IMG/VR virus record: IMGVR_UViG_2579779149_000003
Reading direction: 5' to 3' (one strand)
Origin: a virus
Lineage: Duplodnaviria; Heunggongvirae; Uroviricota; Caudoviricetes
Length of the DNA: 22,140 bases
Positions within the stretch are counted from its first letter, which is position 1. Each line of letters starts with the position of its first letter. A model generated the notes under the pieces. It was not told where the DNA came from and searched no databases. It saw only the letters and a list, made by a program, of their open reading frames with translations. Made by a program: the position numbers and the translations under genes. Shown here one piece after another: positions 7,483 to 18,688 of the stretch.

Positions 7483-8385
7483 TTACGATTGCATATTCCA
7501 AATCATAGCATTCCCATTATGGTTTTCTATGATCTTTGCGATCGGGGCTCCACCAAACGAGTGCATGTAACTGTGATGTATGGTCAAAACCAAATCCTGG
7601 AGGACTTGATCACTTTCCAGTTCTGTAACATTCAATCCAATTTTCTGAGCTTTATCGAAATGGATATGTCTCGAATGAGTGTAAGTTGTATGATGATTGT
7701 TCAGCTCTGAGCATACATGAGTTGCTTTTGTTTCTGACTCCGGATCATTTGCAAACATACCCGTCATAAGCCAGTGCTTGACAATCTCATTCGCCCATTG
7801 GATAGCTTTTTCACACTCTCCGATAATAGTGGGGTTGAGTTTCTGAAGTATAAACTGCCACATTTGCACAGCTGCTGGATTGTTAAAAATTTCCGCCTGA
7901 GCTCTATTCCATTCCTCAATAATAGCATGTGTAGAAAATCCATTAAACTGAGGGTCAATCGGGCCAATATTGGACTGTTTACCCATTATGATTTCATTAG
8001 CACAGCACGCAAGCATGGTACCACATGACATTGAAATCATAGGAACGATAGCTCTGATATCAGTCCCAAACTTAGAACGCAGATAATGACCAATAGACTC
8101 TAAGGCAGCGATATCACCTCCAGGGGTATGTAATATTAAATCCACCCCCTTTGTAACATCTAAACCATTAATAACAGTCATTAATCCATTTTTATCATCA
8201 TCTGTCATCAGGGTGAGATGTCGGACTTCTGCACCACCATGTTGCAACCATCCGGAATAATATGTAATTACATTTCTTCCAGTGTGATTAGACAGTTGTA
8301 ATAAATATTTACGGCGAACCTCATCCATCGGACTCTTCTGGGCGAGAGCCGTCATCTCGCCCAGTACGTCACTCCAATTAGGCAT
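7483..8385 (-). CDS. ClpP-fold serine peptidase (S49/SppA-like or SDH-type), 300 aa, AT-rich accessory gene
   Basis: 300-aa ORF with LILHTPGGDIAALESIGHYL and MISMSCGTMLACCAN motifs, resembling the TPGG and active-site serine regions of S49/ClpP-fold peptidases (compare LLDMDTPGG in gpC in this window). No SD; the ATG lies 5 nt after the upstream stop, implying translational coupling. Family assignment is from motif recognition only. Confidence 0.7.
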   Translation of the reverse strand: MPNWSDVLGEMTALAQKSPMDEVRRKYLLQLSNHTGRNVITYYSGWLQHGGAEVRHLTLMTDDDKNGLMTVINGLDVTKGVDLILHTPGGDIAALESIGHYLRSKFGTDIRAIVPMISMSCGTMLACCANEIIMGKQSNIGPIDPQFNGFSTHAIIEEWNRAQAEIFNNPAAVQMWQFILQKLNPTIIGECEKAIQWANEIVKHWLMTGMFANDPESETKATHVCSELNNHHTTYTHSRHIHFDKAQKIGLNVTELESDQVLQDLVLTIHHSYMHSFGGAPIAKIIENHNGNAMIWNMQS

Positions 8386-11920: not shown

Positions 11921-11995
<75 letters not shown>

Positions 11996-11998
11996 ATA

Positions 11999-12074
<76 letters not shown>

Positions 12075-12076
12075 AC

Positions 12077-12153
12077 TGGACCGCCACCGGGGACTCGAAC
12101 CTCGCACACTCAACTTAAAGGGTTGACGCTCTTTCCTGATGAGCTAGTGGCGG
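12077..12153 (-). tRNA. tRNA-like gene with atypical anticodon loop CCUUUAA (anticodon UUU by position, C at position 33); identity uncertain
   Basis: Acceptor CCGCCAC/GUGGCGG, D-arm GCUC...GAGC, anticodon stem UCAAC/GUUGA, T-arm CGAGG-UUCGAGU-CCCCG (one mismatch), encoded CCA. Packed 2 nt and 1 nt from neighbouring tRNAs. Confidence 0.45.
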
Positions 12154-12154
12154 T

Positions 12155-12230
12155 TGGTGGCCCTTGCTGGATTTGAACCAGCGACCTGGCGATTATGAGT
12201 CGCTCGCTCTCACCACTGAGCTAAAGGGCC
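12155..12230 (-). tRNA. ileZ: tRNA with anticodon CAU (IleX/IleZ-like tRNA-Ile2, or Met)
   Basis: Reverse complement GGCCCUUUAGCUCAGUGGUGAGAGCGAGCGACUCAUAAUCGCCAGGUCGCUGGUUCAAAUCCAGCAAGGGCCACCA closely resembles E. coli tRNA-Ile2 (ileX) and the ileZ gene of lambdoid prophages; T-arm GCUGG/CCAGC is perfect. Confidence 0.8.
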
Positions 12231-15797: not shown

Positions 15798-16076
15798 TTA
15801 CCTCCAGATCCGTTGCTGGTATGTGCGGGATGGGCGCGGTGGGCGTTCGGAATAAGGGAGCCTGACATAGATTATCCAGTGACGATAATCGAGGCTGAGG
15901 GCTTTCTTAATCTCGTATCCGCGTCTGCGATAGTTATGAATTAGCCATTCGGCCTGTTCTTCAGTACATGGGTCATGCTGGAACCAGTCAGATTTGAAAG
16001 TGCGGGAACGCCGCCCGTGCCTGCTGGCAAAGACGGCAGAATCATCAGAATTGTGTAATTTGGTATCGTGCGCCAT
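15798..16076 (-). CDS. Hypothetical nin-region protein (about 93 aa from the internal ATG)
   Basis: ORF 15798..16157; preferred start ATG 16076 (MAHDTKLHNSDDSAVFASRHGRRSRTFKSDWFQHDPCTEEQAEWLIHNYRRRGYEIKK...). No family recognised and the C-terminal end is unusual. Confidence 0.4.
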   Translation of the reverse strand: MAHDTKLHNSDDSAVFASRHGRRSRTFKSDWFQHDPCTEEQAEWLIHNYRRRGYEIKKALSLDYRHWIIYVRLPYSERPPRPSRTYQQRIWR

Positions 16077-16149
16077 CGGTTGTCTCTGCTGGCGCAGCAG
16101 GTGCCAGTTGTTCAGGCTGGCGTGCGAATTGTAAACCAGAATGCCAGGA

Positions 16150-16174
16150 AAAAACAAAACCCGCCGAAGCGGGT
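16150..16174 (-). terminator. Rho-independent terminator downstream of the lipoprotein gene
   Basis: Minus-strand RNA CCCGC-UUCG-GCGGG followed by UUUUGUUUUU (stem 16060-series plus coordinates 16160..16173; a-run 16150..16159). Confidence 0.5.
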
Positions 16175-16372
16175 ATGCTAAAACAAACTGAAAGTAATAT
16201 ACCGGACTTGTAAAGGAACGATAGAATAATTATTGGATTAAACCCTGACTCAATCCAGATTTTATAGGCAACAACTACGGACTAATCATCACAGTCATGT
16301 TTGATAGGCTTAGTCCACATTGGGTGAGGGTTTACGGCGTTTTCACTAATAATTTATCGTCCAAACTATACA

Positions 16373-16765
16373 CTACTGCCCTGTTTTAACGAAGTTTTTA
16401 AAGGAAACAACTGCCTGATAGGGGTTTGGTTGACAGCCAAACATATTATCGCAAAAAGGCTTGATGAAAATTCTTGAGGATCCATCTTCATTTGGCATTT
16501 TACTCACTTGATAAGCGAGGAATGGACTATTTGGAGAGGGATTATAAGTGGAAATTAGCGTGTCTGTCGCCGTTTGAATTTTCCATGAGGAATTATTAGC
16601 CAACCAGAATTGCGCTCGTTTCCAATAAAAGTCACATTGCTTTTCATCATTACATGTTAGTGGCTTCATTGCTTCTGCTTTCAACGCTGGATCGACCTTT
16701 GCTGCACACCCTCCCAACATTACTGTTGCAATCATTACACCTGCGACTAAAACAAGTTTCTTCAT
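16373..16765 (-). CDS. Putative lipoprotein (130 aa), AT-rich moron
   Basis: MKKLVLVAGVMIATVMLGGCAAK... has a signal peptide with canonical lipobox LGGC; flanked by terminator-like hairpins sharing the 13-mer CGCCGAAGCGGGT. No family recognised. Confidence 0.7.
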   Translation of the reverse strand: MKKLVLVAGVMIATVMLGGCAAKVDPALKAEAMKPLTCNDEKQCDFYWKRAQFWLANNSSWKIQTATDTLISTYNPSPNSPFLAYQVSKMPNEDGSSRIFIKPFCDNMFGCQPNPYQAVVSFKNFVKTGQ

Positions 16766-16908
16766 CTCCCTGCCCCATCAATAAAAGTTCGGTTCTCTAA
16801 TAACTAGAGTTAATCAACGGAAAAAACGCCGAAGCGGGTTAAGTGCGGGTGCGTTGAGGATGCCTGACACATCAGAGGTGGCGAGGGATTTCTCCCCCGC
16901 CAGGTCTC

Positions 16909-17064
16909 TTACTCCTCAGGTTCGTAAGCTGTGAAGACAGCGACCTCCGTCTGGCCGGTTCGGATTCGTACCTCGCAGAGGTCTTTCCTCGTTACCAGTG
17001 CCGTCACAATGACGGTTAAACAGATGACGATCAGGGCGATTAACATCGCCTTTTGCTGCTTCAT
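16909..17064 (-). CDS. hokD: Hok-family type I toxin (HokD/RelF-like, 51 aa)
   Basis: From the internal ATG at 17064: MKQQKAMLIALIVICLTVIVTALVTRKDLCEVRIRTGQTEVAVFTAYEPEE, recognised as HokD/RelF. The in-frame upstream extension (ORF from 17121) is probably leader sequence. Confidence 0.85.
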   Translation of the reverse strand: MKQQKAMLIALIVICLTVIVTALVTRKDLCEVRIRTGQTEVAVFTAYEPEE

Positions 17065-17275
17065 AGCCTGCTTCTCCTTGCCTTTCGGCACGTAAGAGGC
17101 TAACCTAGATTTGCCGTTCATAGATTGAGCCTCAGATTAATGTTAAGCGTCTTGCAGGACGCGTAATGTTAACTGGGGCTTTTCTCTATCTGCCTTTGGT
17201 GTTCATGCCTGAGACAGATAGCCTCAAGCACCCGCAGCCATTCTACTTAACTCCCGTTACCTCGCCAATATAAAA

Positions 17276-17650: not shown

Positions 17651-18688
17651 TTAATTACCCTTATCAATTTTAAGAAATACATTTCCAATCTCATCAGAAT
17701 AATCCTGTATTATTTTTGAAATGACGGCATGATCAATGGTTGGTTTTAAAAATAAAAGTGTCACAGTAATCTGCATCAAACTAATAGCAGTAGCATGGGC
17801 TGGATCAGCCATTCCTGAATCACTTTGCCCGACCAATAATATATCATCACCAGTTTCACAGAGACCAAGCCTATTTCTCATTGCCTTGGAACCGGTGTGT
17901 ACATTCTGACTCGCCCACTTATAATAAGGGCGCATGTGTTCTAACTGAACATCTTTCTCAATAGCTCCAAACCCCACTTTATTATGGTTAGGGAAAATAT
18001 AAGATGCCCAGCCATAATTATCTGCATATTTTTTGCCATATTTTTTTATTAATATATCAAATTGAACTTTACACTCAGCTATTTCTTCAATAGTTGGACC
18101 TTTTGCTTCTAACCGGTGCTCGTACTTTTTGTGTTCCAACATTCCAGTATATGAATCAACCACTTCATGGTAGTAAAAGCGCTCAGCACACTCTTTTCCA
18201 TGCTTTGCTATAAACATAGCTGTGGCCGCTACCTCATGAAGTGCTCGCCATCTCGCTTGGGCAGCATCTGCAAATCCATTCTTTAAGAGACACAAAATTT
18301 CGTTGGCGATGTGGCAAGCTCTTGCGTGATGCCGAACGACTAAATCAAAAACCACATCCTCTTCAGAGGCAGCTTGTGGTCTATAAGAACGATTGAACTC
18401 TTCACCGGACTCCGTGCATATCACTATAAGTGTTTCGAGCAAATCAAAAGCCTCTGCCCATCTTGAAATATTTCTCTCAACAAATTCATCACAAAGAGAA
18501 CGATGTTCTCTAAGCATTGCATTGGCCGAGCCAATAAGAGATTTTTTAACGACAATGGCTATTTTGGGAATTAGGTTATTAATTTCTTTTTCGATATCAG
18601 CGTCACCAGATAAATCAAGTCTCTCTTTTAAAAGGCTGTCTATGTGCTCAAGCAAAATATTATGAAAAGTATCCATGTCATATCTCAA
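17651..18688 (-). CDS. Hypothetical 345-aa protein, AT-rich orphan gene (candidate defence or abortive-infection gene)
   Basis: Long ORF MRYDMDTFHNILLEHIDSLLKERLDLSGDADIEKEINNLIPK... with K/I/N/E-rich composition, flanked by AT-rich intergenic regions. No family recognised. Confidence 0.7.
   Translation of the reverse strand: MRYDMDTFHNILLEHIDSLLKERLDLSGDADIEKEINNLIPKIAIVVKKSLIGSANAMLREHRSLCDEFVERNISRWAEAFDLLETLIVICTESGEEFNRSYRPQAASEEDVVFDLVVRHHARACHIANEILCLLKNGFADAAQARWRALHEVAATAMFIAKHGKECAERFYYHEVVDSYTGMLEHKKYEHRLEAKGPTIEEIAECKVQFDILIKKYGKKYADNYGWASYIFPNHNKVGFGAIEKDVQLEHMRPYYKWASQNVHTGSKAMRNRLGLCETGDDILLVGQSDSGMADPAHATAISLMQITVTLLFLKPTIDHAVISKIIQDYSDEIGNVFLKIDKGN

Follow-up and report, generated by a model that had tools for sequence, protein, structure and literature searches.

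Lipoproteins that exclude other phages have their genes in structural or receptor-binding-protein clusters and attach to receptors from the periplasmic side. Llp of T5 and Cor of phi80, N15 and T1 are directed at FhuA and Rtp45 of Rtp at LptD, while Lpp021 and Lpp010 of the mEpimmI phages, likewise specified by structural-cluster genes, exclude OmpA- or LamB-dependent phages (PMC9586334; PMC12685063; PMC11893012). HK97 gene 15, for its part, is a lambdoid moron in a position that is expressed in the lysogen (PMC3594210). Here, we describe a gene for a 130-residue lipoprotein precursor in a lambda-like prophage of Escherichia coli (IMG/VR virus record IMGVR_UViG_2579779149_000003; the whole stretch of 22,140 nucleotides that was analysed is called the window below). 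Comparison of the locus with its relatives indicates with high confidence that the gene is a moron, that its product is a lipoprotein, that its insertion has split the terminator of a prophage hok/sok locus and that an intact copy of this terminator lies downstream. The gene is probably one of superinfection exclusion or of host conversion.

The protein resembles Llp, Cor, Rtp45 and the Lpp proteins in being phage-encoded, in bearing a lipobox, in its predicted periplasm-facing position in the outer membrane and in being the product of a small accessory gene, and its relatives occupy the tail or receptor-binding gene positions that are typical of this group. In contrast to Llp, Cor and Rtp45, the mature form is about 111 residues long rather than about 60, contains two CX5C motifs and is predicted to adopt a helix-grip-like alpha+beta fold; no sequence similarity to these proteins is detectable, none of them is found among the listed fold matches, and a search of PDB sequences gave no match. 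Whereas exclusion lipoprotein genes are typically tail-adjacent, the E. coli copy lies in the nin region. As a genetic element, the locus is comparable to HK97 gene 15 and to lambda bor and lom (PMC3594210), being extra DNA of deviant GC content, bounded by a terminator and located in a position expected to be expressed in the prophage. Unlike them, it apparently lacks a promoter of its own and seems to borrow the hok promoter by way of a disabled terminator, and its product is not homologous to Bor, Lom or gp15.

The features on which this comparison rests are the following, in the order in which they are met along the minus strand.

17222–17268, minus strand: hok promoter (TTGGCG-17-TAGAAT, 17268–17240) and 5' tac element (17235–17222), from the promoter scan and the fold.
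17059–17233, minus strand: sok antitoxin region (Rfam RF01794, 110 bits against a gathering score of 59, E = 1.4e-24).
16909–17064, minus strand: hok toxin gene of the hokD type, 51 aa (Pfam HOK_GEF, E = 3e-23).
16845–16859, minus strand: fbi (fold-back inhibition) element, an inverted repeat, intact and 5 nt upstream of the cassette junction.
16819–16839, minus strand: crippled terminator copy between hok and the lipoprotein gene, ACCCGCUUCGGCG then UUUUUUCC, with the 13-mer at 16827–16839.
16175–16826, minus strand: DNA found in the inserted cassette alone, 652 bp (665 bp when one copy of the repeat is counted), delimited by comparison with phage Evi.
16766–16826, minus strand: 5' leader of the lipoprotein gene, 61 nt, with the G-rich ribosome-binding region GGGGCAGGGAG.
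16373–16765, minus strand: lipoprotein precursor gene, an open reading frame (ORF) of 130 aa, PHROG 16082.
16175–16372, minus strand: 3' untranslated region (UTR) of the cassette, 198 nt, present in the E. coli cassette only.
16149–16174, minus strand: intact intrinsic terminator 3' of the lipoprotein gene, ACCCGCUUCGGCGGGU then UUUGUUUUUU, from the terminator scan and the fold.

The first-pass annotation of this DNA had drawn attention to a 13-mer, CGCCGAAGCGGGT, on either side of the lipoprotein gene. The window does contain exactly two copies of it, at 16162 and 16827, and not a single further one when two mismatches are allowed; however, the real repeat is longer than the 13-mer, one copy extending over 28 nt (16147–16174, GGAAAAAAC[AAAACCC]GCCGAAGCGGGT) and the other over 21 nt (16819–16839, GGAAAAAACGCCGAAGCGGGT). 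This repetition is not due to chance, since phage Evi has an uninterrupted site with a single hairpin: its hok 3' region runs into ACCCGCUUCGGCGGGU and a U-run and then directly into the same left flank as in the window. Aligned with Evi, the window exhibits a clean 665-bp insertion inside the hairpin, flanked by the repeat.

The two copies differ in their capacity to fold. That on the 3' side of the lipoprotein gene, which contains the 13-mer at 16162–16174 and is identical to the single hairpin of the empty site in Evi, folds at −10.5 to −13.1 kcal/mol (minus-strand 16174–16159 with the U-run) and is the sole terminator call there; it is the original hok terminator, re-used. The copy next to hok lacks the seven nucleotides GGGUUUU, the 3' arm of the stem, and retains a stem of only 3 bp, with a folding energy indistinguishable from that of shuffled sequence (z = −0.1). 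Among the E. coli-type loci examined, all 60 in which hok still directly precedes the gene have the same crippled form. Of the two copies, only the one 3' of the gene is a working terminator. Two flanking hairpins had been described in the first-pass annotation, of which the one at 16839–16827 has now to be withdrawn for want of its 3' stem arm; the remark that the downstream copy is a good terminator stands if downstream is taken as 3' of the gene, at low coordinates, and falls for the high-coordinate copy.

Of 5426 complete E. coli genomes, at least 2138 have the site empty and contiguous, whereas 255 (about 5%), pathogenic strains among them, carry the 665-bp cassette in it. Given these counts and the empty site of phage Evi, the filled site is the derived, minority state. 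The insert consists of the 61-nt leader, the ORF and the 198-nt 3' UTR, and has a GC content of 38–41% as compared with 50–55% in its flanks. It is thus both extra DNA with respect to collinear and very common empty-site relatives and deviant in base composition, two marks of a moron in the sense of Hendrix and Juhala, so that the AT-richness and the moron character proposed earlier are both upheld. One and the same context surrounds the cassette in all 56 E. coli-type IMG/VR copies and in the inspected RefSeq loci, which points to a single origin of the E. coli cassette followed by its spread with the hok-nin module.

An origin from a transposon or a miniature inverted-repeat transposable element was considered and rejected: the ends of the cassette carry no terminal inverted repeats, a transposase is lacking, the lipoprotein gene is the only substantial ORF, and the cassette has a median of one copy per genome in a constant context. 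The 3' UTR, whose sequence is found only together with the cassette, holds a 16-nt inverted repeat (16239–16254 and 16319–16334). The 69-bp segment bracketed by this repeat (about 16258–16326) is deleted in about 10 of the 56 IMG/VR copies and also in phage vB_EcoM-606R7, and one copy, L195, has a different deletion of about 100 bp. A structured RNA or small RNA in the 198-nt 3' UTR was rejected as well, with no Rfam match and a fold z-score of −0.46 against shuffles. The interval from hok to the lipoprotein gene is prone to further insertions and rearrangements: the leader of E. coli 503440 (L020) contains the insertion sequence (IS) IS1203, and in L141 an element of the IS3 family sits about 11 nt from the ATG. 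L155 carries 1.3 kb inserted at the crippled hairpin, the hok region of L177 is enlarged by about 3.3 kb, and hok is partially duplicated in tandem in L178.

A complete hok/sok type I toxin–antitoxin locus (about 16840–17270, minus strand) is found immediately upstream of the lipoprotein gene. The Hok/Gef ORF, the sok region and the tac/fbi pairing are all present; of the two states of the site, only the empty one has its terminal hairpin whole. An in-frame extended version of the hok ORF reaches 17121, and the RefSeq name for the identical gene is hokD. In the minimum-free-energy fold of the hok mRNA, nucleotides 5–18 pair with nucleotides 381–395, which corresponds to the 14-bp tac/fbi pairing. 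The cassette would lengthen the 3' end of this mRNA by 665 nt. Chromosomal hok loci of E. coli K-12 are reportedly disrupted by IS elements, an observation attributed to Pedersen and Gerdes in 1999. The present locus is similar in that foreign DNA lies just downstream of the hok frame, in the 3' end of the hok mRNA; it is different in that this DNA is a lipoprotein gene instead of an IS, that fbi is intact and that the terminator is re-used 665 nt further on.

How the lipoprotein gene may be expressed depends on its short leader. No sigma-70-like promoter was called in the 61 nt between hok and the ATG, although simple consensus scans of this kind can miss real promoters. The leader carries AGTTATTAGAG where relatives have TGnTAGGATT, an extended −10-like element that is degenerate in the E. 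coli copy. A moron is expected to have its own promoter and its own terminator; here, a terminator is present but is the re-used hok terminator, and no promoter was called. Because the crippled copy cannot fold and no leader promoter was found, the gene would ride on the hok transcript rather than form a unit of its own, and we count the universal presence of the crippled copy among the loci examined, together with the intact hok promoter, tac/fbi pairing and sok, as support for read-through. One variant with a better −10 hexamer in the leader, TATTAT, weighs against this. On balance, we are inclined to think that the gene is read through from the hok promoter, with transcripts ending at the intact terminator. 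The first-pass annotation had the gene expressed from its own unit, which is difficult to reconcile with the missing leader promoter, the degenerate −10-like element and an insulating terminator crippled in all 60 loci.

The same observations could be taken to mean that the gene is a silent passenger, which was left without its promoter by the insertion, stays unexpressed in lysogens and hitch-hikes with the hok-nin module. The degenerate −10-like element would agree with this, as would the presence of an IS between hok and the gene, or beside the ATG, in a few strains and the existence of frameshifted or truncated variants (e.g. P0012 and P0006). We nevertheless consider silence quite improbable, as the ORF is intact, at 95–100% identity, in 251 of the 255 genomes and is also intact in 56 of 56 E. 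coli-type IMG/VR loci, and as the insulating terminator has been specifically disabled in every copy examined; moreover, the gene lies in the path of antiterminated early transcription during lytic growth anyway. The association with hok could also be functional, the lipoprotein modulating Hok toxicity or forming with hok/sok a joint abortive-infection module. The gene indeed adjoins hok, and is probably co-transcribed with it, in every examined E. coli copy without an intervening IS, but no inspected homologue of other genera lies near hok in the Pfam tables of their loci, and hok alone is about eight times commoner than hok with the cassette. Such a partnership is very improbable.

Read-through from the hok promoter is the reading that we retain for expression, and the hairpin itself gives indications on how the arrangement may have arisen. 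It is a generic UUCG-tetraloop terminator whose 19-mer occurs in more than 120 viral contigs; among the matches listed, it directly follows hok in about 25 of 120 contigs and is found in different contexts in the others. It appears to be a convenient shared junction rather than a dedicated moron signal, and the motif formerly taken for a moron boundary is better described as one hok terminator split in two. The Pantoea homologue is preceded, at a distance of 65 nt, by an identical 16-nt hairpin, and a near-identical hairpin, AGCCCGCUUCGGUGGGUUUUG, directly follows the tape-measure gene upstream of the Enterobacter homologue. The upstream regions of the relatives have a common layout, with the hairpin, about 20 nt, TGnTAGGATT, about 20 nt, ACUGAUGGGGAUAGGGAU and the ATG. 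The E. coli copy retains the hairpin-proximal CCGUU and the ribosome-binding region, and the sequence 3' of its crippled copy (UUUU..CCGUU..AAC) resembles the flank of the Enterobacter cassette. All this fits a cassette that arrived with a hairpin upstream of its gene and recombined there with the hok terminator of identical sequence; the hybrid copies on both sides are what a single crossover of a circular intermediate would leave.

We thus propose that a 665-bp AT-rich moron was inserted in a prophage hok/sok locus, within the stem of its intrinsic terminator, most likely by recombination within the UUCG-tetraloop hairpin that also precedes the gene in other phages. This event would have left a copy of the terminator on each side, the one next to hok being short of 7 nt and unable to fold. 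Transcripts from the constitutive hok promoter would then probably pass through the lipoprotein gene and stop at the intact copy, allowing the prophage to express the lipoprotein without a promoter of its own.

The product has the attributes of a bacterial lipoprotein processed by Lgt and LspA, namely a signal peptide with a positively charged n-region, a hydrophobic h-region and a lipobox that ends in an invariant cysteine. The lipobox LGGC, already recognised in the first-pass annotation, ends a signal peptide of residues 1–19 (nt 16765–16709; MKKLVLVAGVMIATVMLGG followed by C), composed of MKK-LVLVAGVMIATVM-LGG-C20, and the predicted lipidated residue is Cys20 (nt 16708–16706). The lipobox of homologues is mostly LSGC. 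Gly at −2 is rarer than Ala or Ser. The mature protein of 111 aa has two CX5C motifs (C38/C44 and C105/C111), presumably periplasmic disulfides. Cys20, C38, C44 and C105 are invariant across 83 family sequences, and C111 is present in at least 90% of them. According to the +2 rule of the Lol pathway, a lipoprotein without Asp at position +2 is sorted to the outer membrane. The +2 residue is Ala in the window protein and A, V or N, never D, in 16 aligned members; because Asp is missing from this position, the protein is predicted to be sorted to the inner leaflet of the outer membrane, in agreement with the targeting that had been claimed for it.

The protein matches PHROG 16082, a family of unknown function, over its full length (E = 2.6e-84, residues 1–130 against profile positions 1–130). 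No match to it was obtained in Pfam, where no DUF3568 profile match was seen either, or in NCBIfam, PADLOC or PDB sequence searches, which agrees with the earlier statement that no family was recognised. The likeness to Cor and Llp suggested at that time does not extend to homology: the match to the Cor family PHROG 1119 (E = 0.0071) covers residues 1–44 only, that is, the signal peptide and a short linker. A profile search of 1.84 billion cluster representatives (clusters at 50% identity) retrieved 1141 proteins at E ≤ 1e-3 and 532 at E ≤ 1e-10. Family members are mostly 125–135 aa long, and 12 of 83 sampled members have a C-terminal PDZ domain. Close homologues, at 66–85% identity, were found in Enterobacter, Pantoea and Phytobacter. 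A tblastn search of GenBank phage records detected homologues in two induced E. coli prophages only, a close-family pattern scan of species-representative genomes gave no match, and a literature search by accession, peptide strings and topic found no publication on this lipoprotein family.

An AlphaFold2 model of good overall confidence (mean pLDDT 84, core above 90) consists of a helix, a four-stranded sheet and a second helix. From this model, the mature domain should be compact, disulfide-stabilised, alpha+beta and helix-grip-like, folding in the periplasm. Foldseek found no match below E = 0.01 in the PDB, the listed matches being generic (5–15% identity), and no significant match in BFVD. 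Francisella Flpp3 (DUF3568) and the N-terminal domain of BamC, at 11–13% identity and Foldseek E > 0.01, share a likeness of fold class only. The predicted fold class would be one common to other envelope lipoproteins, with no function that could be transferred from it. One could imagine a periplasmic domain of the helix-grip, START or KA1 type, small and able to bind a ligand or lipid, which would handle a hydrophobic molecule or an envelope protein, would have been captured by phages by chance and would play no specific part in their biology. The matches that would suggest it are the generic ones just mentioned, every close relative inspected (at least 44% identity) is borne by a prophage, and the conservation between genera, at 64–85% identity within phage operons, speaks for selection acting in a phage setting; we regard such a chance capture as unlikely.

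The genomic contexts of the relatives are more informative and are listed here, each with its percentage identity to the protein of the window.

Enterobacter hormaechei and gut metagenomes, 81% identity: between the tape-measure gene H and M.
Logan contig L012, 64–68% identity: between M and L.
Logan contig L013, 82% identity: between K and I.
Pantoea ananatis, 73–76% identity: between I and J.
Pantoea sp., 85% identity: after an ant/Bro gene, a few small ORFs upstream of J.
Phytobacter, 68–70% identity: degraded prophage, near a gpM fragment.
Citrobacter freundii group (P0187), 44% identity: 45 nt downstream of a cI-type repressor gene, on the same strand.
PDZ fusion P0165, about 35% identity: ordinary chromosomal context.
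P0162, 31% identity: tail cluster of an unrelated phiJL001/GTA-like siphophage.
P0172, about 30% identity: IS-rich region.

Homologues at 64–85% identity thus fill five slots of lambda-like tail-tip clusters (between H and M, M and L, K and I, I and J, and upstream of J). Most of these relatives have a promoter-like element and their own terminator, and a strong terminator of its own lies downstream of every tail-cluster copy. The Citrobacter relative (L203–L206, 4251–5381) is present in four prophages with different replication modules; no terminator separates it from the cI-type repressor gene, and it is the second gene of the cI repressor (immunity) operon, like rexAB of lambda. The homology to a housekeeping lipoprotein that would have spoken against a phage function exists in a weak form only, as distant chromosomal and PDZ-fused relatives, the close relatives inspected being those of prophages. 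These contexts support the view that phages have repeatedly put the gene in sites of expected lysogen expression, most often among the tail-tip genes. By their tail-tip slots and their position in the cI operon, the relatives thus support a moron that acts on the envelope and is expressed in the lysogen.

Which service such a gene would render to the lysogen can be discussed in two directions. Lambda Bor and Lom provide the model for a lipoprotein of lysogenic conversion, which would change the host envelope to the benefit of the bacterium (serum or antimicrobial-peptide resistance, adhesion or stress tolerance). This is a serious alternative, if somewhat unlikely: no Bor homology was detected (no Pfam or NCBIfam match), and an exclusion gene linked to a receptor would better explain why the gene has come, repeatedly and independently, to lie among tail-tip genes (beside M, L, K, I and J in several genera, and also in a distant siphophage).

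Of the functions considered, superinfection exclusion seems the likeliest, and we propose it tentatively, from genomic context and by analogy with the exclusion lipoproteins. Once exported, lipidated at Cys20 and, with Ala at +2, delivered to the inner leaflet of the outer membrane, it might attach from the periplasmic side to a receptor or complex of the outer membrane, or disturb the tail tip of an incoming siphophage. With somewhat more hesitation, one may go further and see in it the founding member, for E. coli, of a large family that has no name as yet, made up of outer-membrane lipoproteins borne by phages and without structural relationship to Llp, Cor and Rtp45, which would exclude siphophages with lambda-type tail tips through a new receptor or periplasmic step. 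The lysogen would express these proteins from an extended −10 promoter of their own within the tail operon, by co-transcription with cI or, after deletion of half of the hok terminator, by capture of the hok promoter.

Several observations weigh against an exclusion function. The protein has no sequence or fold similarity to Cor, Llp or Rtp45 and no PADLOC match, and its mature form has roughly double the length of the exclusion lipoproteins known so far. The E. coli copy of the gene is unlinked to tail genes and is paired with differing head modules. The C-termini of J in five carriers are 50–82% identical, like the rest of J, with no special co-variation with the lipoprotein, a comparison that says little either way. 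Finally, the wider family includes chromosomal, non-phage members, some of them fused to PDZ domains; because of these members, the family domain would not be intrinsically anti-phage.

The cassette and the hok/sok locus sit in the nin region of the window, whose genes run along the minus strand. In this direction, replication genes are followed by a gene for a DUF5677 protein, hok/sok, the lipoprotein gene and a small PHROG 1212 ORF, then by DUF968 and RusA genes, tRNA genes, lysis genes and the head genes (Nu1, gpA, portal, protease and gpE). The head module beside the hok-nin module varies: that of the window is lambda-like, that of vB_EcoS-689R5 HK97-like. The re-used terminator is directly followed by this ORF.

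15798–16157, minus strand: small ORF of PHROG 1212, function not known.

RefSeq labels this ORF a 92-aa hypothetical protein, and one phage record calls it 'toxin to Rem'. Its start is ambiguous, the longest version beginning at a TTG that overlaps the terminator U-run. Just upstream of hok, the DUF5677 protein (345 aa, 17651–18688, minus strand; PHROG 27456, unknown function) has no PADLOC or NCBIfam match; its gene lies in a second AT-rich island (34–38% GC) and resembles another moron. Four tandem tRNA genes (11924–12230, minus strand) are located between the Q antiterminator region and the lysis genes, and the tRNA set at this place differs in related prophages (Met/Thr/Gly or Ile/Lys/Thr). 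A ClpP-like SDH-type serine protease ORF of 300 aa (7483–8385, minus strand), between the terminase and lysis regions, is outside the usual order of lambda head genes and may be another accessory gene.

A lipoprotein moron in a prophage is a well-known kind of element, of which few families have been characterised, those few being small proteins. What is new here is a large unnamed family unrelated to the known exclusion lipoproteins, the breadth of lysogen-expressed positions that it occupies and the apparent co-option of the hok transcript. If the protein does exclude phages, it would be a structurally new receptor-blocking protein, which would bear on host range in phage therapy and might serve as a probe of an outer-membrane protein. 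More generally, the locus suggests that a shared terminator hairpin can serve as a junction for the exchange of morons, and that the hok promoter may be co-opted to drive a passenger gene.

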